Virus record (IMG/VR): IMGVR_UViG_3300044633_001982
Direction: 5' to 3' (one strand)
Length of the DNA stretch: 64,000 bases
Origin: a virus
Taxonomy: Duplodnaviria; Caudoviricetes
How positions within the stretch are numbered: the first letter of the stretch is position 1; every line of letters starts with the position of its first letter. This document shows positions 9,695 to 53,010 of this stretch, piece after piece. The notes under the pieces were generated by a model. It was not told the origin of the DNA. It made no database searches and worked only from the letters and a program-made list of their open reading frames with translations. The translations under genes were made by a program, and so were the position numbers.

Positions 9695-12600
9695 ATGTCT
9701 ACATTCCCATATAAAAACCCAATAAGTTCAGAACAATTAAATGGAGTACAATCTGTTGAAAGGTCCGAAACATTTGGAACAAATTTTTCAGTACTTGGAG
9801 TTGGTGGGTACATGGAGGTATTTAATCTTACTGATTTAGTATATACAATACCATCTGCAACATTTGGACCAATTGAGTATAGTGGTAATACCATACCAAT
9901 ACAATTTACAAAGGGGACTGGTGCGGTATTTTCACCTGATGTACTAACACTTAATTCTGATAATATATCTTCGGGAAGAAAAAGGTTGGGTATGTTGGCT
10001 TACGTCTATGAAGACGACCAAGTGTACCAATTCAGAATTGATAATTACGAATCATTATGGTCTGCGGTAACTGCAACTACTGCAATTACATTTTATGATT
10101 TTGGAACCACAATTAATAATACGACTGTTGCAAGTCAAAACTTCATTAACGCTTGGACGGCATCGACTATTGAAGGTGTTGGAGGCGCAACACACGCTAC
10201 CGCTATTTGGAAAAAATACGGTTCAACTGGAAGTACCTCATCCGCAAGTACTTTATATATTACAGGTACAGGAATTAATTCCACAATAAGATGTGGGGTT
10301 AATAATACGGCTGCGGGTGATTTTGGAGGTGCTCTTGCGGGTTCAGGTAATACCGCTTCAGGTAATTATTCATTTGTTGGTGGAGGACAAGGTAACACCT
10401 CAAGTAATTATTTTTCAACAATCGGAGGAGGAGGTTTTCATACATCAAGTGGATTTTATTCAACCGTAGGTGGTGGACGTTGTAATACATCAAGTTCCTA
10501 TAACTCAACCGTAAGTGGGGGATATTGTAACACCTCAAGTAGTAAATACTCAACTGTTGGTGGTGGATATAAAAACAACTCAAGTAGTAAATACTCAACC
10601 GTAGGTGGTGGAGTTGGTAATACTGCAAGTGGTTACAACTCAACCGTAGGTGGTGGAGTTGGTAATACCGCAAGTAGTTATAACTCAACCGTAAGTGGGG
10701 GATATCAAAACACCTCAAGTAGTAAATACTCAACCGTAAGTGGGGGATATCAAAACACCGCAAGTGGTAATAACTCAACTGTAGGTGGAGGACAAGGTAA
10801 CACCGCAAGTTCTTATTACTCAACCGTAGGTGGAGGACAAGGTAACACCTCAAGTAGTGAATACTCAACTGTTGGTGGTGGTAAATGTAATATAGTTACT
10901 GGTAAAGGTGTGTGCTCCTCAATTTTAGGGGGTAACTATAATAGTGTTGAATCACAGGCTTCCTCAATTTTAGGAGGATTAGGTAATATTGTTAAATCTT
11001 ATGCTGGTAACATTAATGGTGGAGTCTCTAATATTATTGGTAAGGGTATAACGTATTCAAATCTATATTGTACGAATTCTGGTTATAATAGAGTATATCT
11101 TAGTGGGGATGTTACAGCGTTATACCCTAATGGTGACACTGTCCAATTTTTTAATAATTATGATGGTAATTTAATTAAAGGTGATATTACTAATTCATCA
11201 TATAGTGGGGGGTATACTTGTTTGGATTTATCAGTGAATACTGGGTCAAATGTATATAGTACTCCAATTATTAATCTTAATAACGTAGGTATCTATGGAT
11301 GTTTCAATACCATCAATGGAGGGTATGTAAATAGTATTAGTTCTCAATATTACGCAACAATTGGAGGGGGGCATACAAATTGCGCAACAGGAAATGGGTC
11401 GACAATAGGTGGAGGTGAAGATAATGAGTCAATTGGGCCGGTATCAACCATAGGTGGAGGAAATGGTAACACTACAAATGGAAATGGGTCGACAATAGGT
11501 GGAGGGAGTGTTAACACTGCAAATTGTTTTTGGTCGACAATAGGTGGAGGAAATAGTAACACTGCAACTTGCGATTATTCAATAGTAGGTGGTGGGTATA
11601 AAAATACCTCAAGTGGTTGTTACTCTTCTGTATTAGGAGGTTTAATAAATTGTGCTTCAGGTAACTCATCCATAATTGGGGGTGGTAAGTGTAATTGGGC
11701 TAATGGAGGGTGTGCGACCGTAAGTGGGGGGTATAAAAACTATTCAAACGGACCTTCTTCATTTATTGGAGGGGGACAATTAAATACCGGAACATCTGTT
11801 AATAGTGTTATCGCAGGTGGACAAGTAAACTGTGTCACAGGTAGCTCAGGAACTATTGGTGGTGGTTATAAAAATATTTCGTATGGTGACTTTAGTACTA
11901 TTAGTGGTGGTTATTTTAACTGTGCGGTAGGAGGATGTTCATCAATTTTAGGTGGTTATAAAAACAATTCTTGTGGAACTCATAGTGCGGTTGTTGGAGG
12001 TACTGGTAATAATGCTGTTGGAACTTGTTCATTTATTGGAGGAGGAAGTTCAAACTCAGCAACAGGACTAACCTCAACAATTGGTGGGGGTATTAATAAC
12101 TGTGCTTATGGAGCTTGTTCATCTGTTCTTGGCGGAAAATGTAATACTTCATCAGGAATATATTCAACCATATCAGGAGGGTATAGAAACTTTTCTTGTG
12201 GTTCTTATAGCTCAGTAGTTGGTGGTAGATTTAATACCTCGTCAGGAATTTACTCAACCATATCAGGGGGATACCGAAATATTGTATCAGGTTGTACTTC
12301 GTTTATTGGTGGTGGTACTTTAAACTGTTCTTGTGGAAATCAGTCATCAATACTTAACGGACAGTCAAATATTATCACTCCTTCATTTGCGAATGTTACA
12401 ATATTAAATGGTTCCTCAAATACGGGTAATACAAGTAATAGTGTAATTTTAGCGGGATGTTCAAACATTCTATCAGGAGCAAGTTCAAAATTTGCGTATA
12501 CAATTATTGGTAATGGATGTTTAAATAGGGTTTTAGGTGATACATCAAATATTTTAAACGGATTTAATAATTTAGTAAGTTCCCTTGGAACGTTTACAAC

Positions 12601-15600
12601 AATCCTAAATGGATGTTGTAATTCCGCATGTTCTATTTCATCAACTATTAGTGGAGGGTATAAAAACACAACAAGTGGGTCATATAGTTTTATAGGGGGT
12701 GGTAGGAACAATACCACTAGTAATATCTATGGTTCAATTATTAATGGTACCGGAAATACCTCATCGTCTGTTTCATCATTAATTGGTAACGGTATTGGTA
12801 ATACTGTCTCATCAAGATATGGTAGTGTAATTAATGGTATATGTAATTTATCACAAGGAGCTTCTTTTAACACCATCACTAATGGATGTTTGAATAACAT
12901 ATGTGGTAAAACCTCTTGTTTTTCAAGTATTATTAATGGTAGTGGTAATACAATTAATACGTCAACATACTCATTTATAGGTAATGGTAGTGGTAATACA
13001 TTATCAGCAAACACAACAGGGTCATTCATTTCTAATGGTTATAACAATATTGTTTCGGGGTGTAGCTCTTATATAGGTAATGGTAACTCTAATACTATAA
13101 GTGGTAATTATTCCGCAATTATTAATGCCGGTAAAGGATTTACCTATGGGGGAAGTATTATATGTGGTTCACACTCAACAATAATAAGTAATAATGGAAA
13201 CGTTGGTAAATGTGGGGGATGGATTTGTGGGGACTCAAATTTAATCGGTAATTCAACATCATCTTGTATTTGGCGTAATACTTTTTCATTACAAATGAAC
13301 ACCAATTGCTCTCAAATTATTGATGGTAATGATAAAGGATGTTCTTATAATCAAATTATTGGAGGTACTAATAGTTTTGTTTGTGGTAGTTACGCGACCA
13401 CTGTTATTAATGGATTTGGACATCAGATTAATAATGTGACTTACGGTTTTGTTGGTAATGGTAGTCATGTTATGGGAGGTCATAATAATGTTACAACGTC
13501 GGGTTATACATCAATAATAAATGGAAATAGTAATATTATTTGTTTTTCATCTCATTCGTTTATTGGTGGAGGGACATCAAACAGAATATGTGGGGCAGCT
13601 AAAAATTTGACAGGTGTTTGGTCATTTATTGGTAGTGGTTTTGGTAACGGAACTTGTGGAGGTACACCTGATTGGAACAATTTAGTATTTTCACCATCAG
13701 GTGCTGTAACTCAATCATCAGGAACTTTTTCATTTATTGGAAATGGATTTCAAAATAATACGACAGGAAGCGGGTCAACGGTTGTTAACGGTTATTGTAA
13801 TTATAACAATGCTGATTGGTCATTTGTGGGTAATGGTAGTGGTAATACATTAAATGCGTGTTACTCAACTGTTGTTAATGGAATTGGTAACTGTATTTGT
13901 AATTTAGCATATTACGGCTCAATACTTGTTGGAAGTGGTAATACTAATAGTGGTTGTTATTCTACTATTGTAAGTGGTAATAGAAATAATATAGTTTCAA
14001 GACCATCTTCATTTATTGGTGGTGGGTGTTGTAATATTATAAGTGCTAACGTTTCTACATTTTTAATTACTGTTGTTGGAGGATGTTGTAATATTGGTTC
14101 AGGAGGTAATTCATTTATAGGTGCTGGAAGTTGTAACTCTAATAGTGGTGGGACATCATTTATTGGTGCGGGAGCTTGTAACACAGTATCATCAAGCTAT
14201 TCTTCAATTGTTGGTGGAAGAGGGAATACTATTAATACTGGTTCTTATTCATCTATTTTAGGTGGGATTTCAAATACTGTTTCTGGAGGTTATAGTGCGG
14301 TTTTAGGAGGATGTGGTAACACCTCAAGTAGTAAATATTCAACTATTGGCGGGGGATGTTTGAATACTAATTCAAGTGTTGCAGGATTTATAGGTGGTGG
14401 TCTTAGAAACTCAGGACTTACAGGTAATTATGTTACTGTAGTTGGAGGTGAATTAAATTGTACAATAGGTGCTTGGTCATTTATTGGTGGAGGACAATGT
14501 AATAGAAGTTGTTGTTCTTATTCTTTTATTGGTGGAGGACAATGTAATGTTATTTCAGGACAAAGTACGACAATTGGTGGAGGGTTTAAAAATTCTGCGT
14601 GTTGTGACTTTGCGTTTTTAGGAGGGGGGTATCAAGGGATATCAAATGGGTGTTATTCAGTATTAGGAGGAGGTTTAAATAATATTTCTTGTTTATTCTC
14701 AACATCTGTTTTAGGAGGTGCTAATAATTCTGGTCATACTTCATACTCATTTATTGGTGGTGGTATTTGTAATGCGGTTACTTCAGGTAGTGATTGTTCA
14801 GTAATTAATGGTGGATTCTGTAATAGGATATCTAATTTAAATTCATTTGTTGGTGGAGGAGGGTGTAATTCGGTTACAGGTCAATTTAGTGGTATTGTTG
14901 GAGGTAGTGGAAATACTGTGTCGTCTAATTTTTCATTCGCTGCTGGATGTGGATTAACCGCTTCTGTGGCATGTACATTCTATTCTAATAATTTTTGTGG
15001 AACCACTTCAGTTAACTCTCCAAGTTTTAGCGGTTCTGTTGGTACTATTTCAGGAACAAAAGGAAGTATAACTATAAGCGGTAGTTCCGTAGGAGCGTTA
15101 ACCACATTTTGTGGAAGTGGAACAGTCGGAGGCGCTAGTTACATAGATTTTATTAGAGTTACCAATAACTCAGGAGGTGCAACAAACCCAAATAAAACTT
15201 TTAGAGTGAATGGTACAGGAGGACTTGAAGTCGTTAACAGCACTTATGGTACAATTATACTCTCACTTACGGATGCCGGAGTATTAAGTACACCAGGAGG
15301 TGGAACATCCGATTTAAGAAGAAAAATAAATGTTCAGTATATTAATGATGAAATCACACCACATATTTTAAATCTAAAACCTGTTAAATTTGAATATAAA
15401 GATTATAGTGGTACAACAAGACACGGTTTTGTAGCACAAGATGTACTTATTGCATACCCTGAATTAGTGCTTGGCGATGGTGAAAAAGAAGACGGAACAT
15501 ACGGACTAGATTATGATGGTATTTTATCTCTAACAGTTAAATCATTACAAGAAACAATATTAAGAGTTGAAAAACTTGAAAAAGAAATTGAATTACTTAA

Positions 15601-15619
15601 AAATTCATCTTCACAATAA
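9695..15619 (+). CDS. Giant tail fibre/spike with Gly/Ser/Asn/Cys beta-solenoid repeats and C-terminal Peptidase S74 intramolecular chaperone
   Basis: 1974 aa; ~15-aa repeats GGGxxNxxSxxYSTV. C-terminal SDLRRKINV...LKPVKFEYK...GFVAQD...DY plus coiled coil is the S74 signature (Ser codon at 15308). Confidence 0.85.
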   Translation: MSTFPYKNPISSEQLNGVQSVERSETFGTNFSVLGVGGYMEVFNLTDLVYTIPSATFGPIEYSGNTIPIQFTKGTGAVFSPDVLTLNSDNISSGRKRLGMLAYVYEDDQVYQFRIDNYESLWSAVTATTAITFYDFGTTINNTTVASQNFINAWTASTIEGVGGATHATAIWKKYGSTGSTSSASTLYITGTGINSTIRCGVNNTAAGDFGGALAGSGNTASGNYSFVGGGQGNTSSNYFSTIGGGGFHTSSGFYSTVGGGRCNTSSSYNSTVSGGYCNTSSSKYSTVGGGYKNNSSSKYSTVGGGVGNTASGYNSTVGGGVGNTASSYNSTVSGGYQNTSSSKYSTVSGGYQNTASGNNSTVGGGQGNTASSYYSTVGGGQGNTSSSEYSTVGGGKCNIVTGKGVCSSILGGNYNSVESQASSILGGLGNIVKSYAGNINGGVSNIIGKGITYSNLYCTNSGYNRVYLSGDVTALYPNGDTVQFFNNYDGNLIKGDITNSSYSGGYTCLDLSVNTGSNVYSTPIINLNNVGIYGCFNTINGGYVNSISSQYYATIGGGHTNCATGNGSTIGGGEDNESIGPVSTIGGGNGNTTNGNGSTIGGGSVNTANCFWSTIGGGNSNTATCDYSIVGGGYKNTSSGCYSSVLGGLINCASGNSSIIGGGKCNWANGGCATVSGGYKNYSNGPSSFIGGGQLNTGTSVNSVIAGGQVNCVTGSSGTIGGGYKNISYGDFSTISGGYFNCAVGGCSSILGGYKNNSCGTHSAVVGGTGNNAVGTCSFIGGGSSNSATGLTSTIGGGINNCAYGACSSVLGGKCNTSSGIYSTISGGYRNFSCGSYSSVVGGRFNTSSGIYSTISGGYRNIVSGCTSFIGGGTLNCSCGNQSSILNGQSNIITPSFANVTILNGSSNTGNTSNSVILAGCSNILSGASSKFAYTIIGNGCLNRVLGDTSNILNGFNNLVSSLGTFTTILNGCCNSACSISSTISGGYKNTTSGSYSFIGGGRNNTTSNIYGSIINGTGNTSSSVSSLIGNGIGNTVSSRYGSVINGICNLSQGASFNTITNGCLNNICGKTSCFSSIINGSGNTINTSTYSFIGNGSGNTLSANTTGSFISNGYNNIVSGCSSYIGNGNSNTISGNYSAIINAGKGFTYGGSIICGSHSTIISNNGNVGKCGGWICGDSNLIGNSTSSCIWRNTFSLQMNTNCSQIIDGNDKGCSYNQIIGGTNSFVCGSYATTVINGFGHQINNVTYGFVGNGSHVMGGHNNVTTSGYTSIINGNSNIICFSSHSFIGGGTSNRICGAAKNLTGVWSFIGSGFGNGTCGGTPDWNNLVFSPSGAVTQSSGTFSFIGNGFQNNTTGSGSTVVNGYCNYNNADWSFVGNGSGNTLNACYSTVVNGIGNCICNLAYYGSILVGSGNTNSGCYSTIVSGNRNNIVSRPSSFIGGGCCNIISANVSTFLITVVGGCCNIGSGGNSFIGAGSCNSNSGGTSFIGAGACNTVSSSYSSIVGGRGNTINTGSYSSILGGISNTVSGGYSAVLGGCGNTSSSKYSTIGGGCLNTNSSVAGFIGGGLRNSGLTGNYVTVVGGELNCTIGAWSFIGGGQCNRSCCSYSFIGGGQCNVISGQSTTIGGGFKNSACCDFAFLGGGYQGISNGCYSVLGGGLNNISCLFSTSVLGGANNSGHTSYSFIGGGICNAVTSGSDCSVINGGFCNRISNLNSFVGGGGCNSVTGQFSGIVGGSGNTVSSNFSFAAGCGLTASVACTFYSNNFCGTTSVNSPSFSGSVGTISGTKGSITISGSSVGALTTFCGSGTVGGASYIDFIRVTNNSGGATNPNKTFRVNGTGGLEVVNSTYGTIILSLTDAGVLSTPGGGTSDLRRKINVQYINDEITPHILNLKPVKFEYKDYSGTTRHGFVAQDVLIAYPELVLGDGEKEDGTYGLDYDGILSLTVKSLQETILRVEKLEKEIELLKNSSSQ
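10376..10880 (+). repeat. 45-bp (15-codon) near-identical tandem repeat array within the fibre gene
   Basis: For example caaggtaac recurs at 10793 and 10838; units share tcaaccgta(g/a)gtgg...aa(c/t)acc(t/g)caagt. Confidence 0.85.
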
Positions 15620-15638
15620 CTAATACATATTTTATATT
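15610..15638 (+). promoter_or_regulatory. Sigma70-like promoter TTCACA-N17-TATATT for the GT/SET/sulfotransferase cassette
   Basis: Exact 17-nt spacing; overlaps the fibre stop codon and lies 18 nt before the ATG at 15657. Confidence 0.5.
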
Positions 15639-15656
15639 TTAATCAAAGCTTTGATT

Positions 15657-16547
15657 ATGAATATAATTTTCCAAATTAATGGTGGTATAGGTAAATGTAT
15701 TTTGGCAACCGCAGTTACCGAAGTAATTAAAAAAAAATACCCAAATTCTAAACTTATTGTTGTCTCAGGATATCCTGATGTTTTCTTAAACAATCCACAT
15801 GTTGACCGAGCGTTTAATTTTGGTGAACATTCTTATTTTTATTCTGACTATATTGAAGATAAAGAATTCAAACTTTTGGCTCATGACCCATACCTTGAAA
15901 CTAACCATATTAATAAAACAGAACATTTAATTGAAACTTGGTGTAAACTATTTGATTTAGAATATAATGGTGAACAACCAAACATATATCTAACTGAGAG
16001 AGAGATTAATTTCTTTTCAAGAAAATACACAACTGATAAACCAATCATGGTTATTCAAACTAATGGAGGGGTTGAACAAAATTTGAAATACTCTTGGGCT
16101 CGTGACATTCCATTCCATATTGTTGAAAGTGTGATTGAAAAATTTAAATATGGTTACACTATTTTTCACCTGAAAAGAGAAGACCAACCATCTTTCGCTA
16201 ATACAATCCCTGTCACTGATACTTTTAGGTCAGTTGCAACTTTAATTGCGATAAGTAATAAAAGATTTTTTATGGATAGTTTTGGTCAACATGTTGCGGG
16301 AGCTCTAAAATTAGAATCCACAGTTTTGTGGATTGTTAACTCACCAAAAGTATTTGGATATGAAACAAATAAAAATATTGTTTCAAACCAATTCACAAAA
16401 AAACCAGAATTAAAAATGTCATATTTAAACAAGTTTAACATAATGGGAGAACCTTTGGAATTCCCATATAATGATGAGTTTGAAATGTTTGACATTGAGA
16501 ACATATTAAATTCTTTAAGTAACAATGAACATCCCGATACCAAATAA
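15657..16547 (+). CDS. GT9 (heptosyltransferase)-fold glycosyltransferase-like protein, copy A
   Basis: N-terminal GGIGK.....KYPNSKL.V...P.VF.NNP.VD and C-terminal DSFGQHVAGAL (GT9-like DS...H.A.A). ATG at 15657 preferred over TTG at 15651. Confidence 0.7.
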   Translation: MNIIFQINGGIGKCILATAVTEVIKKKYPNSKLIVVSGYPDVFLNNPHVDRAFNFGEHSYFYSDYIEDKEFKLLAHDPYLETNHINKTEHLIETWCKLFDLEYNGEQPNIYLTEREINFFSRKYTTDKPIMVIQTNGGVEQNLKYSWARDIPFHIVESVIEKFKYGYTIFHLKREDQPSFANTIPVTDTFRSVATLIAISNKRFFMDSFGQHVAGALKLESTVLWIVNSPKVFGYETNKNIVSNQFTKKPELKMSYLNKFNIMGEPLEFPYNDEFEMFDIENILNSLSNNEHPDTK

Positions 16548-16911
16548 AATTGAAGTGAAATCGTCCCCAATTCACGGATTTGGGGTTTTCGCGATTGAAA
16601 AAATATTAAAAGATGAAATAATTGAAACCTGTTATTCAATTTTTTTCAAAACAGATTTAGGGTCAAACGATGATATATTACTAAAATATCGTTTCTCATA
16701 TCCTTGTGGGGCATCTCCAATAAAGTACGCAATACCTCTTGGGTATGGGTGTATTTACAATCATAGTGATGATAATAATGCAACATGGACATGTGATTCA
16801 GATAATGGAATGTATTATTTTATTGCGGTTAAAGATATTGAGCCAGGTGAAGAAATTTGTACATCATATGGAAAAAAAGAATATTGGGAATCAGTAAAAA
16901 AAATATATTAA
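16525..16911 (+). CDS. SET-domain protein-lysine methyltransferase
   Basis: SPIHGFGVFA, YNHSDDNNA and DIEPGEEICTSYG are the SET motifs. Confidence 0.9.
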   Translation: MNIPIPNKIEVKSSPIHGFGVFAIEKILKDEIIETCYSIFFKTDLGSNDDILLKYRFSYPCGASPIKYAIPLGYGCIYNHSDDNNATWTCDSDNGMYYFIAVKDIEPGEEICTSYGKKEYWESVKKIY

Positions 16912-16913
16912 AA

Positions 16914-17738
16914 ATGGAAAGATTATTTTTTCAGAGTTCACTACCACGAGCAGGTAGTACTCTACTACAAAACATTTTAGCTCAAAACCCTGACATATAC
17001 GCAACACCAACAAGTGGTGTTTTAGAGTTAGTGTACGCGGCTAGAGCAAACTATAGTAATTCACCTGAATTCAAAGCTCAGGACCCTGAACTTATGAAAA
17101 ACGCATTTTTATCTTTTTGTAAAGAGGGGTTAACTGGTTTTTATGAAAGTATTACTGATAAAAAATATGTGGTTGATAAAAGTAGAGGATGGGGTGTCCA
17201 TTATGGATTTTTACAACAAATTGTTGATAAACCAAAAGTTGTTTGTATGGTGAGAGACCTTAGAGATATCTATACCTCTATGGAAAAAAACTTTAGAAAA
17301 AATCAGCACAAAGATTTTGGGATTGTAAATCATTCGGATTTGAAAGGAACATCAACACCTAAAAGAATAGACATATGGGCAAACTCACAACCTGTTGGTA
17401 TGGCGATTGAAAGACTACAAGAAATTTTCAGACAAGGTATTAATGAAAATATGATGTTTGTTAAGTATGAGGATTTATGTTTGTATCCCGATTTAATCAT
17501 GAGAAAAATTTATGAATATTTTGAAATACCTTATTTTGAACATGATTTTGAAAACATTGAACAAATAACAAAAGAAGATGATGAAGTGTATGGTATTTTT
17601 GGGGACCATAAGATAAAAAAGACTTTAGAGTTATTACCATCGGATGCTCAAAAAATTTTAGGTTCAGATATTTGTGATTGGATTTATAATAATTATGGGT
17701 GGTATAACGAGATTTTTAAGTACCCTAAAAATATGTAG
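16914..17738 (+). CDS. PAPS-dependent sulfotransferase (Sulfotransfer_3-like), copy A
   Basis: 5'-PSB loop SLPRAGSTLL and 3'-PB motif VRDLRDIYTS; ATG at 16914 is the likely start. Confidence 0.88.
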   Translation: MERLFFQSSLPRAGSTLLQNILAQNPDIYATPTSGVLELVYAARANYSNSPEFKAQDPELMKNAFLSFCKEGLTGFYESITDKKYVVDKSRGWGVHYGFLQQIVDKPKVVCMVRDLRDIYTSMEKNFRKNQHKDFGIVNHSDLKGTSTPKRIDIWANSQPVGMAIERLQEIFRQGINENMMFVKYEDLCLYPDLIMRKIYEYFEIPYFEHDFENIEQITKEDDEVYGIFGDHKIKKTLELLPSDAQKILGSDICDWIYNNYGWYNEIFKYPKNM

Positions 17739-17746
17739 TTTATTGG

Positions 17747-17754
17747 TATTTATA
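17747..17754 (+). promoter_or_regulatory. Putative late promoter motif TATTTATA
   Basis: 5 nt before the ATG at 17760. Confidence 0.5.
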
Positions 17755-20181: not shown

Positions 20182-22155
20182 ATGTTTGTACCACCATATA
20201 ATTATTTAGTTGTTAGTTGTTGTGACGGAGCTCAATATATCATCAACATGCCAAGTGGAGGACAGGTTGGTGAGATGTGGTATATTAATACTGTTGAAGG
20301 ACCAAGTTTTTGTTTTGTAATTGAAAATTTAATAGGTCCATCATCTTCAGGTTATGATTATGGTGCGGATACTGCGGAAATAGTTTTAAATGGACTTAAT
20401 AATTGTTCCGAAGCTCCTGGATTTTGTTGTGCAACATCCCCAACCCCAACACCTACGGTTACAAGAACTCCTACTTTAACCCCTACCAAAACAAAAACTC
20501 CAACACCAACAAAAACAAAAACTCCAACACCAACAAGAACGGCTACCCCAACTAAAAGTATGGGATTTACACCGACCCCAACTGTTACAAGAACTCCAAC
20601 TGTCACACCTACAATGTCGGTCACTCCGACAATAACACCAACTGTTTCAGTATCTAGAACTCCATATCCTGAAATAACCGCAAGTTTACGTATTACAGGT
20701 AGAAATGAATGTGATATTATTACCATTTATCCAATGGAGGTACAATGTCAGACAGTTCAAGAACCAAGTACCTCAACATCAAGTGACGGTATATTATCTT
20801 TATTTATAACAGGAGGTACACCACCATATACAATACAGTGGTCTAATGGTCAAACTTCACAAACTTTAAATAATGTTAGTTATGGATTTTATACTGCGGT
20901 GGTTACAGATTATTACGGAGATTTCTCATCCACAACTACTTGTGGATTTTATGCTCCGACACCTACACCGACCACTACTCCTACCACTACGCCAACTATG
21001 ACTCCATCAAGAAGTGTGGGAAGTAATCCTGTAATTCCAAATCTATGTATGTCATTTACATACTGTGAACAGTCATATTTGATTACATTTATTAATAATG
21101 GAACATACAATTCTCATTACTCTTGGATTTCTGAAGATGGACAATATTTCATATTACATAATGGTAGTTATTGGGAATTCATTGGATTAGTAATGTGTGG
21201 TAGCCAAACTCCTCAATTAAGGACAACAACAACGTCATCGATACCTAATAATGGTTGGACATTCTTAGGTGCTGGAAATACAGTAAATGGACCAGTTATA
21301 GTAACTGAGGGTACTTGTTCGTCTCAACCATTGGCATTGACATATACGGCTAACGGTGCGTGTACTAACAATGGAAGTATTTTATCAACTGCGAACGGAG
21401 GTTCTTCACCGTATACATATTCAATTGATAACATTACTTATCAAAATTCTCCATTATTTAATAATTTGGTATCAGGAAATTACACGTTGTATGTTATGGA
21501 TAATAACAGTAATACATCTAATGTTGGTGTAACAGTACCACAAATTGCAAATCAAAATTATGTTATAAGTGTTAATTTTGTTGGTAACCCAACAGGGAAC
21601 TACACAACTACAAATTGGACATCTAATCCATCTTCGATATATACTACAACTATTACAAATGGTAGATTAGCACAAATTACAATCACTCCATCATTACCTA
21701 GCGGTGTTATTGTTGAATTTGATTTAAGTTTTACAAGTCAAATAACCCAATCACCTCAATATAATTCTTCAGACTATTATAATTGGGGAACAAGTAATTC
21801 AGTTGAAAAAAATTCAATATTACAGACACCTGTGGTACAACCTCAGAGTATTACTAATTTCCCATTAGCGGGATGTAAAGGAGCCCTATCAGGTAAAACA
21901 ATTGTATTAGATGTTGATATGTATAATGGTCTACAAATGATTAGTACCGATACATACGATTTATCATTCAATCATTCAATACTAATAGGTAATAAACCAA
22001 ATGGTGTATTTCCTTGTAATAAAAAGTATGAATACTTATTGAAATACCAATTAAGAAACATAAAACTTTATAACGCACCTTGTTCAACAGTATCGATAGG
22101 TAATGACATAGTTCAAGTTTCAGTTAATTTAGGTCAACAATTTTTTGGAGGGTAA
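20182..22155 (+). CDS. Decoration/fibre protein with Cys-rich module, PT stalks and SprB repeats
   Basis: TGGTPPYTIQWSNGQTSQTLNNVSYGFYTAVVTD is a classic SprB repeat; long TPTP tracts. Confidence 0.7.
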   Translation: MFVPPYNYLVVSCCDGAQYIINMPSGGQVGEMWYINTVEGPSFCFVIENLIGPSSSGYDYGADTAEIVLNGLNNCSEAPGFCCATSPTPTPTVTRTPTLTPTKTKTPTPTKTKTPTPTRTATPTKSMGFTPTPTVTRTPTVTPTMSVTPTITPTVSVSRTPYPEITASLRITGRNECDIITIYPMEVQCQTVQEPSTSTSSDGILSLFITGGTPPYTIQWSNGQTSQTLNNVSYGFYTAVVTDYYGDFSSTTTCGFYAPTPTPTTTPTTTPTMTPSRSVGSNPVIPNLCMSFTYCEQSYLITFINNGTYNSHYSWISEDGQYFILHNGSYWEFIGLVMCGSQTPQLRTTTTSSIPNNGWTFLGAGNTVNGPVIVTEGTCSSQPLALTYTANGACTNNGSILSTANGGSSPYTYSIDNITYQNSPLFNNLVSGNYTLYVMDNNSNTSNVGVTVPQIANQNYVISVNFVGNPTGNYTTTNWTSNPSSIYTTTITNGRLAQITITPSLPSGVIVEFDLSFTSQITQSPQYNSSDYYNWGTSNSVEKNSILQTPVVQPQSITNFPLAGCKGALSGKTIVLDVDMYNGLQMISTDTYDLSFNHSILIGNKPNGVFPCNKKYEYLLKYQLRNIKLYNAPCSTVSIGNDIVQVSVNLGQQFFGG

Positions 22156-43066: not shown

Positions 43067-43246
43067 ATGGAAACAACTATTGAAAAAATCAAAGCTTTAA
43101 CAGAGTCTCTTTCAGGTGATGTCACTAAATTCAATAACGGGAATAATAGTGCTGGGACTAGAGCTAGAAAAACATCACAAGAATTAAAATCATTATTACA
43201 AACTTTAAGAGGTGAAATTCTTGAAAAAAGAAAAGAAGAAAAATAA
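43067..43246 (+). CDS. Histone H1-like Hc1-family nucleoid protein (59 aa; not in ORF track)
   Basis: METTIEKIKALTESLSGDVTKFNNGNNSAGTRARKTSQELKSLLQTLRGEILEKRKEEK; GN.SAGTRARK...EL..LL...R is the Hc1 core motif. Confidence 0.82.
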   Translation: METTIEKIKALTESLSGDVTKFNNGNNSAGTRARKTSQELKSLLQTLRGEILEKRKEEK

Positions 43247-43248
43247 TA

Positions 43249-45760: not shown

Positions 45761-45889
45761 AATCCATTTTGTACATTCAACACAACCCCATATAAACATG
45801 GATAAACTGAATAATTGAAACATTATTAACCATGGTTTATAATCGTTGATTTTTGCACATGCTTTACATTTTGGAGTATTTTGTATCAT
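45746..45889 (-). CDS. 47-aa membrane micropeptide with two CxxC motifs (not in ORF track)
   Basis: [47 protein letters not shown]; TATTTAT motif on the minus strand at 45933-45939. Confidence 0.5.
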
Positions 45890-45940
45890 AACTTATTATT
45901 TTTAATTTAATAATAAAAAGTTTAATTAAATAATAAATAT

Positions 45941-46336
45941 TTAATTCTTAGCTTCGGGGACCACTAAGTACATCCAAGCGTAATCGTTATATTCTATTAT
46001 CATAAATAACACTCCTGTAATTTCAGAAGGTCCCATATAGAAGTTACAACTATTCCCACTAGAATCTTGCATTCGGTATTGGGCAACATTATCTTGTTCT
46101 GCAAGTTTACCAACAACATAATAATCTTGTTGAGATTTACTAAAAATAGTAACTTTGGAATCCGTAAGTTTAATTAGAATGTCACAATCATTTATTGTTC
46201 CGTTCCATACAATTTCATTTGTACTAAAGTCACGGTAACCAATATTAAATGTTCGGGCTCTCGCGTACTCAATGTCTTGAGAGAAATAGGGTAAAGAAAA
46301 AAGAAAGAAAAGAATTGATAAGATAAAGTTTTTCAT
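45941..46336 (-). CDS. Exported (signal-peptide) protein
   Basis: MKNFILSILFFLFSLPYFS|Q: Sec signal with Gln at +1 (Bacteroidota Q-rule). Confidence 0.7.
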   Translation of the reverse strand: MKNFILSILFFLFSLPYFSQDIEYARARTFNIGYRDFSTNEIVWNGTINDCDILIKLTDSKVTIFSKSQQDYYVVGKLAEQDNVAQYRMQDSSGNSCNFYMGPSEITGVLFMIIEYNDYAWMYLVVPEAKN

Positions 46337-46352
46337 TTGATTATATTTTTTA

Positions 46353-46383
46353 CAAATATAATAAAAAAAATTAATTTACCAAA
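46353..46383 (-). promoter_or_regulatory. Bacteroidota primary-sigma promoter TTTG-N19-TATATTTG
   Basis: Perfect match upstream of the exported-protein gene. Confidence 0.7.
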
Positions 46384-47249
46384 CTAATCAATTTATTAAT
46401 ATCAAACATTTCGTCAATAGACATATAAGGACATTCATGATTTGGACCTTCAAATGAATAGTCAAAAAGATATGAGTCAATTAACTTAACTGTATCAGTT
46501 GGTAACTTTGGTGATATATTATTATGTATACTATATCCAAAATTATTTGGTGATGTTCCTACCCATATAACATTAGATTTAAGATTTAGAGCTGCCGCAG
46601 CATGTTGTAAACATGAGTCAATTAACACCCTTTTGTCTGATGATAAAATGATTAAACATAAATCAACTGCGGACAATTCATAATCAATAACTTCGGCATT
46701 TGGAAGTTGTCTTGATGATTTTTTACAAATTTGAATTATATGGTGTGTTTCACTAAATTTATTAGCAATTGATGATGACACATCAAATGGGATATCTCTG
46801 GTCCATGAATAAGATTGATTTGAATTAAACGCGCCCCCATTTGTTTGAATGAGTAATATTGGTTTTTCTCTTTGCCATTTAGACAATGAACGTTTTTGAG
46901 AAATATTTAAACTAATACTTGGTGTTTGATTGGTATACTCAATCCCGAGTAAGTCACACCAATTTTCAATTAGATGTGATTTTTTAAGTATATGATTTGT
47001 TTGATAATATGGTTCTTGTCGAAAGATTATTGTGTCTTTATCTTTAATATAATCATCATAAAAATATTGAGTGGTACCTAATTTGTATACTCTATAAACT
47101 GAAGAATGGTTTAAGAATACTTCAGGGTATGAGGCGACTACTACAATTTTTCTGTCTTCGTATTTCTCTTTTAATGATGTTAATAGAGACGTGGCGGCAA
47201 TGTTTTTACCCAATCCTCCCTGTATGTGCCAAACAATATATTTTTCCAT
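46371..47249 (-). CDS. GT9-fold glycosyltransferase-like protein, copy B
   Basis: GGLGK, DSCLQHAAAAL; shares long motifs with 15657..16547 (YPxVFLN, TNHIxKxxHLIExWC, IQTNGG, YSWxRDIP). ATG at 47249. Confidence 0.7.
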   Translation of the reverse strand: MEKYIVWHIQGGLGKNIAATSLLTSLKEKYEDRKIVVVASYPEVFLNHSSVYRVYKLGTTQYFYDDYIKDKDTIIFRQEPYYQTNHILKKSHLIENWCDLLGIEYTNQTPSISLNISQKRSLSKWQREKPILLIQTNGGAFNSNQSYSWTRDIPFDVSSSIANKFSETHHIIQICKKSSRQLPNAEVIDYELSAVDLCLIILSSDKRVLIDSCLQHAAAALNLKSNVIWVGTSPNNFGYSIHNNISPKLPTDTVKLIDSYLFDYSFEGPNHECPYMSIDEMFDINKLISLVN

Positions 47250-47250
47250 A

Positions 47251-47694
47251 TTAATTTTTAGAACCAATTCTTATAAATTTATACCATACTCTTTCGTGGA
47301 AGAAATAAACAATTGGTTTAAGTAACAATTCTCCCACACCTAATAACGATGATAACTCAATTGATGCCCCCAATGAGTACGCAACTCCTACGGTAATTAA
47401 AGTACCTAAAATTCTGTAAGATATTGTTTTTAAAATATGTCTGGTTAATACCGATTCTTGTTTAACTGTTGTTATATATGCTACAGTGTTTTTAATCTCA
47501 CAGTGACCCTCACAACTGATATGCCATTTATATTCGTTTAATTCAGGTATCCAGTCTTTAGTAGTATAAGTGTGACCATCAACAACAATATCAGAAACTA
47601 AAATTTCAGAACCATTCTCAATCAATCTCCATCTATCACATTCATTAGTTGAGTGAGTGTTAAATCTTATTTGAAATGTTTTAATTTTTTTCAT
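47251..47694 (-). CDS. Small beta-domain fused to DUF2061-like membrane domain
   Basis: C-terminal KTISYRILGT...ELLLKPIVYFFHERVW matches the DUF2061 pattern. Confidence 0.7.
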   Translation of the reverse strand: MKKIKTFQIRFNTHSTNECDRWRLIENGSEILVSDIVVDGHTYTTKDWIPELNEYKWHISCEGHCEIKNTVAYITTVKQESVLTRHILKTISYRILGTLITVGVAYSLGASIELSSLLGVGELLLKPIVYFFHERVWYKFIRIGSKN

Positions 47695-48089
47695 AGTTTA
47701 CCTTCCAATTTCATTTGTTCTCTTATTTTAGTTGCAGAAATATCGTGTATTTCTTGAGGGGGAATTCTTTCAATAATATCATACCCAACACCTCTACCAA
47801 ATTCTATTGAACATATATCAGGTATTACCATCACTTTAACTCTATCACTCAATTCAGAATAGTGTGACTCAATATTACTCTTAACTTCTTGAGCGGTGAA
47901 TGGATTTTTTTCATCAGGTTCAATGTCTCTGATACAAATCAATACATTCTTACCTTCATCCATCGCTTGTTTAAATAACTCTTGGTGTCCTTTATGTAGT
48001 GGTTGCCATCTACCGACAAACATTGCAAATTGTCCATCTTTTGGTTTCAAAGATGACTGAACGTGAACTTTTTTATCCCAGTTACTCAT
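47691..48089 (-). CDS. HIGH-motif nucleotidyltransferase (cytidylyltransferase-like); candidate minimal ATP sulfurylase
   Basis: GRWQPLHKGH and ISATKIRE motifs; overlaps cysC. Confidence 0.75.
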   Translation of the reverse strand: MSNWDKKVHVQSSLKPKDGQFAMFVGRWQPLHKGHQELFKQAMDEGKNVLICIRDIEPDEKNPFTAQEVKSNIESHYSELSDRVKVMVIPDICSIEFGRGVGYDIIERIPPQEIHDISATKIREQMKLEGKL

Positions 48090-48514
48090 TTTTTATTAAA
48101 AGGTATTAAATCAAGACATTCGTCTATAGTTTTATTTGTTGTGTCAATATCAATAAAGTTTTCAGTTGGTTGTTCATACTCCTTAACAAAGTTTTGTTCT
48201 CTACCTCTGATTTCACTTGTGTGAACATAGATTTCACAAACTTCATTAGTTTCTTTTAATGAGTCCCTCATTCTTTTATAAGGAGCAACAACAGAAATTA
48301 CAACTGTAAATCCCTTGTGGTCTAAAAAACGAGCCAAATCAACAACAGATTGGATATTTTTAATTCTACCTTCAGGTGAATAATCAAAGTTTTGAAATAA
48401 CTCCCTCAAACCATCTCCATCAACATTAATACAATTATCTGAACACTTCTCAATTAAAGCATTCGCCAATGTTGTTTTTCCTGAGCCAGGTTGACCTGTG
48501 AACCAATAAATCAT
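48086..48514 (-). CDS. cysC: Adenylyl-sulfate (APS) kinase
   Basis: WFTGQPGSGKTT, VDGD.LR, DYSPEGRIKN, VISVVAPY. Confidence 0.88.
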   Translation of the reverse strand: MIYWFTGQPGSGKTTLANALIEKCSDNCINVDGDGLRELFQNFDYSPEGRIKNIQSVVDLARFLDHKGFTVVISVVAPYKRMRDSLKETNEVCEIYVHTSEIRGREQNFVKEYEQPTENFIDIDTTNKTIDECLDLIPFNKK

Positions 48515-48768
48515 AGTTGTGTATAAGTTTTACCTGATTGAATCGTATCGTTTATTTCCGTTAATTGAGTTTCAGTTAATGCTGACATAAACCAATCTTT
48601 ACTTTTCATAACTTCTAAATGTTTGTAATTTCTCTCGACTGTAGTTTTTTTAACTTCAATTTTTTCTGTTGGTAATTTAGAACCATCAATAATTCCATTT
48701 ATTAGTGTCACCGAATTAAAGGCTGAATTAATTGATTTAGTTGGGTTTGGTATTTCATCGTTTTCCAT
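48511..48768 (-). CDS. Small fibre-associated (assembly chaperone-like) protein
   Basis: SVTLIN.II...VERNYKHLEVM..KDW...I..GK.Y resembles, from memory, a small family found next to phage tail fibre genes; unverified. Confidence 0.45.
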   Translation of the reverse strand: MENDEIPNPTKSINSAFNSVTLINGIIDGSKLPTEKIEVKKTTVERNYKHLEVMKSKDWFMSALTETQLTEINDTIQSGKTYTQL

Positions 48769-48773
48769 AAAGC

Positions 48774-49589
48774 TTATTTATAATTAAATTTATTGAAGAA
48801 CCAATTATAGTGTTCGTATAATCTATTACTATTATCAGCACCTAATATTTCGTTATAATCTTCTTTTGGTTGAGATAATGTATTTTTTATTGAGTGGTCA
48901 CCAAAAATTCCGTGTATGACATCATTTTCAATAGTTAACTGCTCAATATTATTAAAGTCGTGTTGATAAAAAGGTATCTCCAAATAATCGTAAATCCGTT
49001 TTAACTCTTTATCAGGATTTGATGTTAGGTCTTCAAATCTAACAAAAAGAATATCTTTGTCATATCCTTGGTGAATTGACTCAAATAACCATTCTAATGA
49101 TGGACCAATTGGGGGAGATATTGAAAAATGGTCAACTCTTGATGTTGTTGTCATATTTTTTAATTCATTGACATTTACTAATAGAGGGTCTTTATGTGAA
49201 TTTTTTCTATAGTTTTTTTCCATTGAAGAGAAAATTGCCCTTAGGTCCCTAACCATACAAATAATTTTAGGTGTCCCGTAAAACCACTTTAAGAAATGAT
49301 AGTTACCTATCCACGCTCTACTCTTATCAATAACATAGGGTCTATCAGTTATGTTATCGAAAAAACCCGTTAAACCTTTTTCACAAAAACTTTTTAATCC
49401 CTCTCTCATTTCATCAGGATTTTGTGCTTTAAATGCGTCACCTGTTGTATATATGGTTCTAGCTTGTAAAAGTAGCTCAATCACTCCTGAAGTTGGTGTT
49501 GAATAAATTTCAGGATTTTGCATTAATATGTTTTGAATTAATGTTGACCCTGCTCTTGGTAATGATGCGTTAAAAAATATTTTCTTCAT
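48774..49589 (-). CDS. PAPS-dependent sulfotransferase, copy B
   Basis: SLPRAGSTL and VRDLRAIFSS; clearly paralogous to 16914..17738 (TPTSGV, FKAQ.P, EGLTGF, DKSR.W, GIFGDH). Confidence 0.88.
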   Translation of the reverse strand: MKKIFFNASLPRAGSTLIQNILMQNPEIYSTPTSGVIELLLQARTIYTTGDAFKAQNPDEMREGLKSFCEKGLTGFFDNITDRPYVIDKSRAWIGNYHFLKWFYGTPKIICMVRDLRAIFSSMEKNYRKNSHKDPLLVNVNELKNMTTTSRVDHFSISPPIGPSLEWLFESIHQGYDKDILFVRFEDLTSNPDKELKRIYDYLEIPFYQHDFNNIEQLTIENDVIHGIFGDHSIKNTLSQPKEDYNEILGADNSNRLYEHYNWFFNKFNYK

Positions 49590-49595
49590 AGGTTA

Positions 49596-49624
49596 ATATT
49601 AACCCACAAAACTAAAAATGTCAA
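49596..49624 (-). promoter_or_regulatory. Sigma70-like promoter TTGACA-N17-TAATAT for the sulfation cassette
   Basis: Exact consensus -35 and 17-nt spacer, between the fibre stop (49627) and the sulfotransferase ATG (49589). Confidence 0.65.
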
Positions 49625-49626
49625 AG

Positions 49627-52600
49627 TTAAGCTAATAAAACTTTGTAAGAATTTCCGTTAATTCTTATTTCCCAAGTCCTTGAGGAACTGCACGACTCAG
49701 TTGTTATAGTACCAATAGGAATTGAGGAACTACCTACAACAAATTGATTATTTCCAGTTGCCGTAGCATAACCACCAAGAATAATTGAATAATTATAATT
49801 TCCTGAATTTGTATTATTACCAATTGCAATATTTCGGTACCCTGAGGTGTTTTGATATAATGATTTATATCCAAGTGCAATATTTGATTGTCCATAGTTA
49901 GAAAATAAAACACAATAGCCCAATCCAATATTATGAGAACCACCATTACTTCCATACATTGATTTAAGACCTAAAAGAATATTATAACTACCACCGCAAG
50001 ACGTTCTTCCAAAACTATAATATCCAATAGCAATGTTGTGATTTCCAACAGGTACTGGACCAGTATAACCAATTGATTTAGTCCCTATTGCAATGTTATT
50101 ATTACCTCCATTAGCCCTATATAGAGCACCACTACCTATTGCAACATTTTCACTGCCATATACATTAAAAGTGAGAGTATTATGTCCTAAACTCACATTT
50201 AAATTTCCATAATAGTTGCAAGATTGAGATTCTTGCCCTATCGCAATATTACCTGAAAATTTTGAGTAATTTGTTGTGTAGTACGGCGCTCCTGAGTTTG
50301 TTGTACCACCATATAGGGAATTCAATCCGATTGCAATATTTGATAGTCTACTTTCACCACCAACCCAATCATGTAATGTATTGGGCCCAATTGCTATATT
50401 ATCAGATTTTTTGTCCGATTTACGAAGTGATTGATAACCTATCGCAATATTTCTAACCCCATCAGTATTATAACATAACGCCTGATTACCAATTGCAATG
50501 TTGTCTCTACCTGTACTTGTATAGTATAATGAGTTATATCCTAATGAAATATTGTTACTACCTGTTGTAATTTCTCCACCTGAATTTCTACCTAACGCAA
50601 TGTTGTGTACACCTGTAGTATTACTATATAAAGAACTTCTACCTATTGCAATATTATAATTACCCGTAAAATTGTTGGCCATTGTACCTCTACCTAACGC
50701 AACATTACCACAACCTTGGTTGGAATAACATCCTGAATTACTCATCAAAGCTCTTCTACCAATTGCAATATTTTCACAACCATTATTATTATTTAACATT
50801 GAACACCTACCAATTGCAACGTTAAAATCAGGTTTTGGTCCTTGTGCTCCTGTATTGTAATACAATGCCGCCTGACCAATTGCAATGTTATGGTCTGAAG
50901 CCGAAGTATTGTTTCTTAAAGAATCATATCCGATTCCAATATTACCAATACCACTTGTTAAACAATTCGAGTTTTGTCTTATAGCATTAGTCCCAATTGC
51001 AATATTCTTGGAACCGTTGGGATTACAATACAATGATGTAACACCTAAGGAAATATTATCATCACCTGCACATTTATTTTTTTGACTTTTGAAACCCAAT
51101 GCAATGTTACGAGAAAAACTAATTGAACATCCGTAACCATATAACGCATAATCACCTATACCGATATTACAATAACCTGTAGACAACTTTTTTAAAGAAT
51201 TAGTACCTATCCCAATATTACGAGAAATACTAGTCCCCTCACGTAATGATTTATCACCAATTGCAATATTTCCAAACATACATTGAGAGATATTATAAAG
51301 AGAAGAACTCCCCATAGATATGTTATTATTCCCACATGCTTGGTACATATTTTTATATCCAATGGATATATTGTAATTCAGGCCATAACATACTGATTGA
51401 GAACTGGACATAGATTTATGACCTAAGGATATGTTAAAATCACCTATGGTTTTACTTCTTAAAGACTTATACCCAATTGATGTATTACCTTGTCCAAGAT
51501 TACTTGTTTGTGACTGTTGTCCTATCGCAATGTTATTCCCTCCAGGAGCCACTCCACTAAATGCAACACCACCAATTGATATATTAGTACATACGTTAAA
51601 ATTACCTCTACCAACACGAACACCATTCACATTCAACGTTGGTGAGGTTGCGGCACCATCAAATGTTAACAATGATTCTGCAACTGCGCCTCCACTACCA
51701 TCAGATGTTAAAACCTGATTGTTTGAACCTGGCACCGTGAACTGAGGTGACCCACTAAAAACTAATGTATTTGTTGACGCTGAAGTAATTGATATATTAA
51801 CACCACTAAAATTTATAAAAGTTCCAGTATTTGCGGAGAATTGTGTGGTACCACTAATTCTTACAGATTGAAATGATGATGGTAAGTTTTGATATGTGGT
51901 TGCAGATATTGTAGTTGCAGTTAATCCTTGTAGTGAAGTATTTCCTGTTACGGTTAAGTTGCCATTAATAGTTCCACCACTTTTATCAAATTTATTACTT
52001 ATATCGGTTTGAATTGTTTGAATTATTGAACATCCGCTTAATGTACCACAAGTCAAAGCCGAATTGTCTGAAAATGGTGTTATTCCATAAGAATAATGTT
52101 GGGTACCTTCAGTGACTAAAGTTATTGAATGTGATTGATTACTAGTATTCGTTGCTCTTACTTTTACAACAATTCTGTCAGTTGTATTTATTGATGAACC
52201 CGAATAATATCCGTCCGTTAATTGCATTGATGGATTTGGGGAATTTGTAGTTACTGGAGCCGGGTCAGTTGTAACAAGTAGAGTTTCGGTTCCCCCTGTG
52301 GTTCTTAAATAAACCTCACAGAATATATCAAAAGATGCGTTACTATTTTGTTTGAAAGAATGAAGATAAAAGCTCCAATATCCTGCAGGTATTAGAGATG
52401 CGTTTGGATATCCAGTTGGTGTTTGAAATGAGGTAATCGTACTAGTTACTCCATTGTTAATTGTAACAGCCGTTATTTGTTGTGAATTTGTTGTTCCACT
52501 TGGACTAAATTCTCTATATGGTGGTTGTGAGTTTGATAAATTTAAATAATATACTTGACCTCCAGGTCCTCCTATTGGAAGTCCAGTAACCGTAAAAGTT

Positions 52601-53010
52601 CCTCCTGTATTATTTAAAAAGGTAATTTCTCCATTTGTATAAGTTCCTCCTGTAACATAAACATCGGTTGGTAAATTCTGATAAGTTGTTGCTGAAATTG
52701 TGTTAGCAGTTAGTCCACTTTGGAATATAGTCCCCCCCGATACAGTTCCACCACTTAACGGAAGATATACACCTGTTGTTCCTCCAGCAGGACCCCAATT
52801 GGCGTTACCTGAAGCATCACAAGTTAATACATAACCATTTTGTTCAGTTCCATTAGAATACGTAAATCCACTATTTATAGTAAGTCCCGATAAAAAGATT
52901 GGATTAACAGGAATGGCTCCACCGATACGATAAACAATACCTGTTGATAAGTCAGATTGTAAGACGTAATTATAAGAATCTTTAATTAATTGGTTTTTAA
53001 TATCGGCCAT
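49627..53010 (-). CDS. Tail fibre with NxAIG (YadA-head-like) beta-solenoid repeats, Cys-rich
   Basis: 1127 aa; YLPLSGGT and FDKSGGTINGNL fibre motifs; about 30 N(I/V)(A/S/G)(I/L)G repeats; C-terminal WEIRINGNSYKVLLA; no S74 chaperone. Confidence 0.82.
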   Translation of the reverse strand: MADIKNQLIKDSYNYVLQSDLSTGIVYRIGGAIPVNPIFLSGLTINSGFTYSNGTEQNGYVLTCDASGNANWGPAGGTTGVYLPLSGGTVSGGTIFQSGLTANTISATTYQNLPTDVYVTGGTYTNGEITFLNNTGGTFTVTGLPIGGPGGQVYYLNLSNSQPPYREFSPSGTTNSQQITAVTINNGVTSTITSFQTPTGYPNASLIPAGYWSFYLHSFKQNSNASFDIFCEVYLRTTGGTETLLVTTDPAPVTTNSPNPSMQLTDGYYSGSSINTTDRIVVKVRATNTSNQSHSITLVTEGTQHYSYGITPFSDNSALTCGTLSGCSIIQTIQTDISNKFDKSGGTINGNLTVTGNTSLQGLTATTISATTYQNLPSSFQSVRISGTTQFSANTGTFINFSGVNISITSASTNTLVFSGSPQFTVPGSNNQVLTSDGSGGAVAESLLTFDGAATSPTLNVNGVRVGRGNFNVCTNISIGGVAFSGVAPGGNNIAIGQQSQTSNLGQGNTSIGYKSLRSKTIGDFNISLGHKSMSSSQSVCYGLNYNISIGYKNMYQACGNNNISMGSSSLYNISQCMFGNIAIGDKSLREGTSISRNIGIGTNSLKKLSTGYCNIGIGDYALYGYGCSISFSRNIALGFKSQKNKCAGDDNISLGVTSLYCNPNGSKNIAIGTNAIRQNSNCLTSGIGNIGIGYDSLRNNTSASDHNIAIGQAALYYNTGAQGPKPDFNVAIGRCSMLNNNNGCENIAIGRRALMSNSGCYSNQGCGNVALGRGTMANNFTGNYNIAIGRSSLYSNTTGVHNIALGRNSGGEITTGSNNISLGYNSLYYTSTGRDNIAIGNQALCYNTDGVRNIAIGYQSLRKSDKKSDNIAIGPNTLHDWVGGESRLSNIAIGLNSLYGGTTNSGAPYYTTNYSKFSGNIAIGQESQSCNYYGNLNVSLGHNTLTFNVYGSENVAIGSGALYRANGGNNNIAIGTKSIGYTGPVPVGNHNIAIGYYSFGRTSCGGSYNILLGLKSMYGSNGGSHNIGLGYCVLFSNYGQSNIALGYKSLYQNTSGYRNIAIGNNTNSGNYNYSIILGGYATATGNNQFVVGSSSIPIGTITTESCSSSRTWEIRINGNSYKVLLA

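Follow-up and report, generated by a model that had tools for sequence, protein, structure and literature searches.

The DNA analysed here is a 64,000-nt stretch (the window) of IMG/VR virus record IMGVR_UViG_3300044633_001982, a member of the Caudoviricetes (Duplodnaviria). It contains two gene cassettes, A and B, each adjoining a gene for a long repetitive fibre and each encoding a sulfotransferase (ST) and a glycosyltransferase-like protein (GT) of the GT9 fold. Cassette B also holds a trio of genes for an adenosine 5'-phosphosulfate (APS) kinase (APSK), a nucleotidyltransferase (NTase) and a DUF2061 protein, which may supply the sulfate donor, 3'-phosphoadenosine 5'-phosphosulfate (PAPS). 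The best reading of these sequences, with about an even chance of being correct, is that the phage decorates its own fibres with sugar and sulfate (virion glyco-sulfation). The gene identities, the folds, the paralogy, the conserved synteny and the nested occurrence of the enzyme genes, on which this reading draws, were observed directly.

Fibre A (FibA; 9695..15619, + strand) is an open reading frame (ORF) of 1974 aa that ends in a C-terminal Peptidase_S74 intramolecular chaperone domain. It is composed of 18.7% Gly, 15.5% Ser and 3.9% Cys (77 Cys), and its repeats, of about 14-15 residues each, are rich in Gly, Ser, Asn and Cys. Fibre B (FibB; 49627..53010, - strand) is an ORF of 1127 aa built of NIAIG-type repeats. 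Over 519 aa it shares 32% identity (E 5e-52) with gp48, the annotated tail fibre of Pelagibacter phage HTVC112P. The two giant fibre ORFs on opposite strands, described in an earlier reading of this DNA (the original prediction), were therefore both present. Their description as Cys/Gly-rich held for FibA; FibB contained only 2.0% Cys. No homology between the two was detected (BLASTP, E 1.4). Judged by their sequences, they are different repeat classes, and not the duplicates that had been proposed.

Cassette A, on the + strand, consists of GT-A (15651..16547, with a likely start ATG at 15657), a SET-domain methyltransferase (16525..16911) and sulfotransferase A (16857..17738). The listed 293-aa ORF of the last, starting at a TTG, is probably over-extended. 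Its homologues are 272-274 aa long, and it more likely starts at the ATG at 16914, 2 nt past the SET stop, which gives 274 aa. The trio is absent from this cassette, and the gap between the ST and the following gene is 21 nt. Cassette B, on the - strand, comprises sulfotransferase B (48774..49589), an 85-aa ORF kept in such cassettes (p85; 48511..48768), APSK (48086..48514), NTase (47691..48089), the DUF2061 protein (47251..47694) and GT-B (46371..47267), the final gene of conserved type-B cassettes. All the predicted cassette genes were thus located where expected. The two STs are paralogues (51% identity, E 1e-106), and so are the two GTs (40% identity, E 8e-71), again as predicted. On the other hand, the view of 9695-53010 as one system did not hold, since about 30 kb of unrelated genes, including those for replication, a sigma factor, lysis and DnaJ, separate the two cassettes.

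The gene neighbourhoods were surveyed in 136 distinct loci from IMG/VR and metagenome-assembled genomes (MAGs). This survey was centred on the GT and covered only ST and APSK genes near a GT; the counts below refer to the 66 distinct loci in which the GT was flanked by 6 kb or more on each side. A fibre-like ORF was found within 6 kb of the GT in 58 of the 66, and upstream on the same strand in 50. Two types of cassette were conserved. In type A the order was FibA-like ORF, GT, (SET), ST, APSK, NTase and DUF2061, with the genes typically end to end (ST, APSK, NTase and DUF2061 at about +10, +825, +1270 and +1650 nt from the GT end). In type B it was FibB-like ORF, ST, p85, APSK, NTase, DUF2061 and GT. 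Each type was paired with its own fibre class, A enzymes with A fibres and B enzymes with B fibres. The three complete relatives (290-304 kb) carried one to five fibre-like ORFs each, and all four of their cassettes directly followed one. This strong synteny bore out the proposal that each fibre travels with dedicated enzymes.

The accessory genes occurred in a nested fashion. NTase was never found without APSK (0/66 loci), while APSK lacked NTase in 5 loci; APSK was found without an ST within 6 kb in a single locus (1/66), while ST lacked APSK in 11. The frequency in these GT-centred loci thus fell from ST to APSK to NTase. Such nesting is what would be expected of a dependency chain in which the trio serves the ST.

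The position of the trio was also informative. The two-cassette genomes, that of the window and G004, had a single APSK-NTase-DUF2061 trio each, and G004, in which the cassettes lie side by side, had one APS kinase. In L004, the closest relative (GT 92% identical), the trio was inside cassette A. In the window it was in cassette B, arranged exactly as in G003 (APSK 93% and NTase 97% identical). In G001 (the contig of L002 and L006), GT, SET and ST were kept and APSK was reduced to a 22-codon remnant (216650-216715), directly 3' of the ST and 91% identical to APSK residues 1-22. We interpreted this remnant, from its sequence, as the record of a recent deletion of the PAPS module with retention of GT, SET and ST.

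The 142-aa APSK matched PF01583 (1.2e-18; 68 bits, cut-off 21.1) over profile positions 4-111 of 152. In alignments with 7yq0 and 8a8h, the motifs GxxGxGKTT, DGDGLR, S.E.R and SVVAPY (P-loop, DGD and APS-binding) were kept. Relative to 7yq0, about 28 residues were missing from the lid region, and this short form was conserved in the relatives. The protein scored below the equivalog threshold of TIGR00455 (77.6 against 138.7).

A phage cysC may also be an ordinary auxiliary metabolic gene that boosts assimilatory sulfate reduction of the host for cysteine during infection. Freshwater phages with cysC and larger genomes have been reported and read in this way, with sulfotransferases never mentioned (PMC10914622). 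The cysC of these phages is probably a gene of the kind described here, and it likewise comes from large phages of lakes. Here, however, cysC was embedded and nested within ST/GT/fibre cassettes. The three complete relatives contained neither a PAPS_reduct-domain gene (cysH/cysD type) nor an ATP-sulfurylase family gene, which argues that the phage APSK is not part of an assimilatory pathway. The G001 remnant further showed that APSK was lost with its partners while ST and GT stayed. We therefore rejected the assimilatory explanation as highly improbable.

The DUF2061 protein (147 aa) matched PF09834 (7e-15; 55.6 bits, cut-off 23.1), with Cys and His residues in its N-terminal half and with two hydrophobic helices. 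Of 151 Bacteroidota genomes sampled, 8 contained DUF2061, and the cellular loci described here come from these eight genomes and one MAG. In two of them, DUF2061 was fused to a full-length APS kinase (L163, 1444-2466, 340 aa, preceded by a CysN-like GTPase; L173, 1477-2331, 284 aa). In two others the genes were neighbours, in the orders CysQ, two DUF2061 genes and APSK (L167, 1477-2536) and PAPS_reduct, OsmC, DUF2061 and APSK (L168, 882-1743). These cellular fusions and adjacencies are independent evidence, and they support a role of DUF2061 as a partner of APS kinase. In the literature we found only incidental mentions of DUF2061.

The 132-aa NTase, with an HxGH motif, matched PF01467 (CTP_transf_like, 5e-8). 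Its motifs GRWQPLHKGH and ISATKIR follow the pattern of nicotinamide mononucleotide adenylyltransferases (NMNATs; GRxQPxHxGH and ISxTxIR). NMNATs were also its best matches in the PDB and NCBIfam, at no more than 39 bits against cut-offs of at least 127 and over residues 21-90 only, in a protein about 40 aa shorter. It scored below the ATP-sulfurylase cut-off (PF01747; 17 bits against 24.3) with a match to the HxGH motif only, and its 132 aa compare with a domain of about 212 positions. From its position, translational coupling and nestedness, the NTase may be a sulfate adenylyltransferase; APS from the host could equally feed APSK. A complex prediction for APSK and NTase, run without controls, scored 0.00 and is evidence neither way. 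Service to the GT, in the manner of the adenylyltransferase domain of HldE, is less likely, for NTase never occurred without APSK, whereas GT often did. The proposal that the phage supplies its own PAPS thus stood for the APS kinase step, in view of the one trio per genome, the lack of PAPS_reduct in the relatives and the DUF2061-APSK fusions. For the sulfurylase step it is conjectural.

Both STs matched PF13469 (A, 5e-18; B, 8e-18), with scores that exceeded the Pfam cut-offs. By sequence, the nearest PDB match was to the tyrosylprotein sulfotransferases (TPSTs) TPST1/2 (3.6e-5). TPST1/2 also made up the top 11 structural matches (TMq 0.50-0.68), followed by CurM and olefin-synthase sulfotransferase domains. 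The PAPS-binding motifs, 5'-phosphosulfate-binding (5'-PSB, PRxGS/TT) and 3'-phosphate-binding (3'-PB, RDxR...S), were present and aligned to those of TPST1. Among 27 sequences, R12, S15, T16, R114 and S122 were invariant, and so was K89, the equivalent of TPST Lys158. The position of TPST Glu99 aligned with a Thr, with an invariant Glu 5 residues downstream. NCBIfam gave a weak match to the Nod-factor sulfotransferase NoeE. By sequence and fold, then, the enzyme is closest to the protein-tyrosine sulfotransferases.

More than 2184 homologues of the GT were found. The AlphaFold2 model (predicted local distance difference test, pLDDT, 85; predicted template modelling score, pTM, 0.85) had GT9 proteins as all of its best Foldseek matches: 3tov (5.7e-12), 1psw (2.2e-11), WaaF, WaaC (1e-8) and TibC. 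In this model, the GT fold is the GT9 GT-B fold with two Rossmann-like domains, as the original prediction had held. By sequence, no match to a Pfam or NCBIfam family (GT9, PF01075) was obtained, and the family profile matched no PDB sequence. The hhalign comparisons with WaaF (E 0.011) and WaaC (E 0.16) were weak, yet the DSxxxHxAAAL motif was aligned. The GT family has an invariant G-G-x-G-K loop (K15) at the beta1-alpha1 position, where WaaC has Gly-Asp (aligned by position only).

Several of the observations weigh against the fibres as the modified molecules. The best structural matches of the GT are heptosyltransferases of lipopolysaccharide (LPS), WaaF and WaaC. The invariant Lys replaces the catalytic Asp13 of WaaC, and this makes the glycosyltransferase activity and the acceptor chemistry uncertain; the comparison of catalytic residues rests on the weak hhalign result and on position, because the GT profile gave no match to PDB sequences. 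No genes of a nucleotide-heptose pathway were noticed among the window genes in general family scans. Acidic residues (D+E) make up about 3-4% of the fibres, with few near tyrosines, unlike classical TPST sites. The synteny is partly inherited, and so the loci are not independent events.

Other observations on this side are those expected if the GT and ST modified a glycan of the host envelope (LPS core or capsule) at the cytoplasmic face, the receptor of the adjoining fibre. Such masking would block superinfection or keep the progeny from being trapped on debris, and fibre and enzymes would co-evolve by tracking the same receptor. The WaaF and WaaC matches fit this explanation, as does the weak similarity of the STs to NoeE. 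The DUF2061 protein looks membrane-embedded, by prediction, and would also suit action on lipid-linked glycans. In one relative, the cassette runs on into N-acetylglucosamine (GlcNAc)-transferase, HtrL and GT2-like genes. Flavipsychrobacter prophages have the fibre-GT pair as well. The prophage copy is found at the end with the integrase, flanked by the fibre and the ImmA/serine-recombinase genes, where lysogenic-conversion genes are typically located. Conversion genes of the P22 type have a similar position.

On the other hand, the carriers are mostly large, apparently lytic phages, and in L004 the cassette is inside the structural module. The nearest relatives of the ST act on protein tyrosines, and the catalytic Asp of LPS-type enzymes is replaced, by position, with the invariant Lys. 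Moreover, the fibre-GT pair extends to phages of SAR11. In HTVC112P, a cultured 32-kb SAR11 podophage (L176, 2734-5885), gp48 and the GT9-like gp49 touch at start and stop, and gp48 combines repeats of the FibB type with a C-terminus that is S74-like. The envelope glycans of Bacteroidota and SAR11 should differ, whereas the fibre repeats are common to both. Because the host of HTVC112P belongs to another phylum, the fibre is a likelier candidate for the conserved acceptor than a glycan of the host. We consider receptor masking possible, if rather unlikely.

The enzymes may instead act on a third kind of target: the Pro/Thr-rich appendage proteins encoded 3' of cassette A, a small molecule or a glycolipid. 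In the window and in L004, structural genes rich in Thr and Pro come after cassette A, and the next-best structural matches of the ST, CurM and the olefin synthase, would suit such a target. The cassettes, however, adjoin repeat fibres and not these PT-rich genes, which are missing beside the type-B cassettes and at the loci of the prophages, the pelagiphage and G001. Genes for the biosynthesis of a small-molecule acceptor were not seen. This explanation appeared quite improbable.

Decoration of the fibres, on these comparisons of sequence and fold, would be favoured by the tracking of enzyme type with fibre type, the fibre-GT pair in the pelagiphage and the prophages, the GT9 fold, which TibC shares, and the TPST-like ST. 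Further indications came from Flavipsychrobacter and other Bacteroidota MAGs. In these loci, the GT was fused to or followed by an FkbM methyltransferase (PF05050) in place of the ST (L112:10004-11641, L095:4409-6034, L097:10007-11632 and L107:10963-11664). Because FkbM takes the position of the ST in these prophage relatives, this suggests that either enzyme caps a sugar installed by the GT. At another Flavipsychrobacter MAG locus (L113:6054-7661), a PAPS-independent arylsulfotransferase (ASST, PF05935, 7e-13) was encoded about 2 kb 3' of a GT9-like gene.

In the scheme we propose, the cytoplasmic GT9-fold GT would first add a sugar to the Ser/Thr-rich beta-repeats of the adjoining fibre, in the manner of Aah and TibC on AIDA-I and TibA. 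The PAPS-dependent, TPST-like ST would then sulfate the added sugar or fibre tyrosines. One shared donor module, that of cassette B in the window, would convert APS to PAPS with the short APSK and the DUF2061 protein. The 132-aa NMNAT-like adenylyltransferase may form APS from sulfate and ATP. The fibre as acceptor, the order of glycosylation before sulfation and the sulfurylase role are what we infer. Taken in its full form, the scheme would be O-glycosylation by a divergent GT9 enzyme and sulfation with phage-made PAPS, with a minimal, NMNAT-derived sulfate adenylyltransferase of 132 aa and a lid-less APSK working with DUF2061, in a widespread lineage of freshwater jumbo phages. We regard this complete version as tentative and rather doubtful.

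The single enzymatic elements have precedents. Aah and TibC, autotransporter heptosyltransferases of the GT9 fold, heptosylate serines in the Gly/Ser beta-helix repeats of the product of the neighbouring gene (AIDA-I and TibA, respectively). The likeness lies in a GT9-fold enzyme, cytoplasmic and without a signal peptide, whose gene adjoins that of a long surface protein with Gly/Ser-rich beta-repeats, and TibC is among the structural matches of the GT. The phage GT differs in showing no detected sequence similarity to these enzymes and in the invariant Lys of its N-terminal loop; its presumed substrate is a fibre, and the ST and the PAPS module are added.

The nodPQ-nodH genes for Nod-factor sulfation and the raxPQ-raxST genes for tyrosine sulfation of RaxX (PMC4646787, PMC4216712) are alike in joining an ST to its own APS kinase or sulfate-activation genes for a specific product and not for assimilation. 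The phage ST is, like RaxST, TPST-like (PF13469). The differences are that the genes here are phage-encoded, that the 142-aa kinase is lid-less and accompanied by DUF2061, that CysDN or Sat is replaced by the candidate 132-aa NMNAT-like enzyme, and that the presumed acceptor is a virion fibre.

Glycosylation of mycobacteriophage virions by phage GTs encoded beside structural genes has also been described (Freeman et al. 2023, PMC10527164, as cited in PMC12619734). These enzymes decorate virion proteins; their GT families and host phylum are different, and their targets are capsid and tail-tube C-termini, where here they are presumed to be repeat fibres. Neither sulfation nor a donor-supply module is known for that system. 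In our literature search, we met no phage cassette combining a fibre with a GT9-like enzyme, a TPST-like ST and a PAPS module, and no report of sulfation of a phage virion. On this search, the combination in a phage appears to be new.

The SET-domain protein of cassette A (128 aa) matched PF00856 (1.1e-13) over the full length of the profile (positions 1-105 of 105). Among the surveyed GT-A loci, the gene was found only in the closest relatives (L004-L006); it was also found 3' of the GT in L002 and L003 and on the contig of P0005. It is thus an accessory gene limited to the closest relatives. The window also encodes an Hc1 histone H1-like protein of 59 aa (43067..43246, + strand; PF07432, 1.1e-19), and a syntenic Hc1 gene was present in L002. 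Chlamydial SET proteins reportedly methylate Hc1. By analogy, the phage SET protein may act on this DNA-binding protein and not on the fibre. The Hc1-like protein itself may have a role in condensation of the phage DNA.

A promoter after each fibre gene had been proposed. Promoter-like hexamers were indeed present in both short gaps: TTCACA-N17-TATATT after FibA (15610-15638), and TTGACA-N17-TAATAT after FibB (49624-49596, - strand), with 6 nt between its end and the sulfotransferase B ATG. However, such sites were not more frequent in the window, which is AT-rich, than expected by chance (39 found against 42.8 in shuffled sequence). If the hexamers after FibB are used, the mRNA of sulfotransferase B would be nearly leaderless. 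Directly 3' of GT-B is a 131-aa ORF (45941..46336, - strand) with a signal-peptide-like N-terminus and no Pfam or NCBIfam family. Its membership of cassette B is uncertain. The p85 ORF likewise had no Pfam family.

The window has a low GC content (about 31%) and comes from a lake jumbo phage, probably of about 290 kb. Other genes in it encode a primase, an exonuclease, SbcCD, a sigma factor, an amidase, DnaJ, a Dam methylase and a thioredoxin. A megablast search with 25 kb of the window found no match in cultured phages, a tblastn search with the 1014-aa structural protein found none in phages, and a PHROGs search of the structural genes at 1-9682 gave nothing. GT homologues of 41-58% identity occurred in MAGs of Flavipsychrobacter, Chitinophagaceae and other Bacteroidota, one of them at a prophage end within a 1.02-Mb contig. 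Because of these homologues, the host is probably a member of the Bacteroidota. SprB repeats (PF13573), typical of gliding-motility adhesins of Bacteroidota and compatible with such a host, were found in two structural proteins of the window (6374-8581 and 20182-22155). The features described for the freshwater 'moraphage' jumbo lineage are Bacteroidota hosts, DnaJ/DnaK and several core GTs (PMC12619734), and in these features the window phage resembles that lineage.

The system is common in nature, with near-identical window DNA in at least 20 lake-water metagenomes and a GT family of more than 2000 members. The locus was found in no RNA run. The viral cysC of large lake phages looks like a donor supply for sulfotransfer, not the auxiliary gene of assimilatory sulfur metabolism that it has been taken for (cf. 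PMC10914622). DUF2061 gains a testable role as a partner of APS kinase, and the NTase is nominated as a very small candidate ATP sulfurylase. HTVC112P, being in culture, is suited to a direct test of fibre glycosylation. If the full scheme of O-glycosylation and sulfation is true, it would establish the first case of a sulfated bacteriophage virion, and DUF2061 would receive its first functional assignment. A sulfated and glycosylated fibre, if present, would bear on host recognition, on how readily the virion sticks to charged or sulfated polymers of the lake water, and on escape from the defences of the host.

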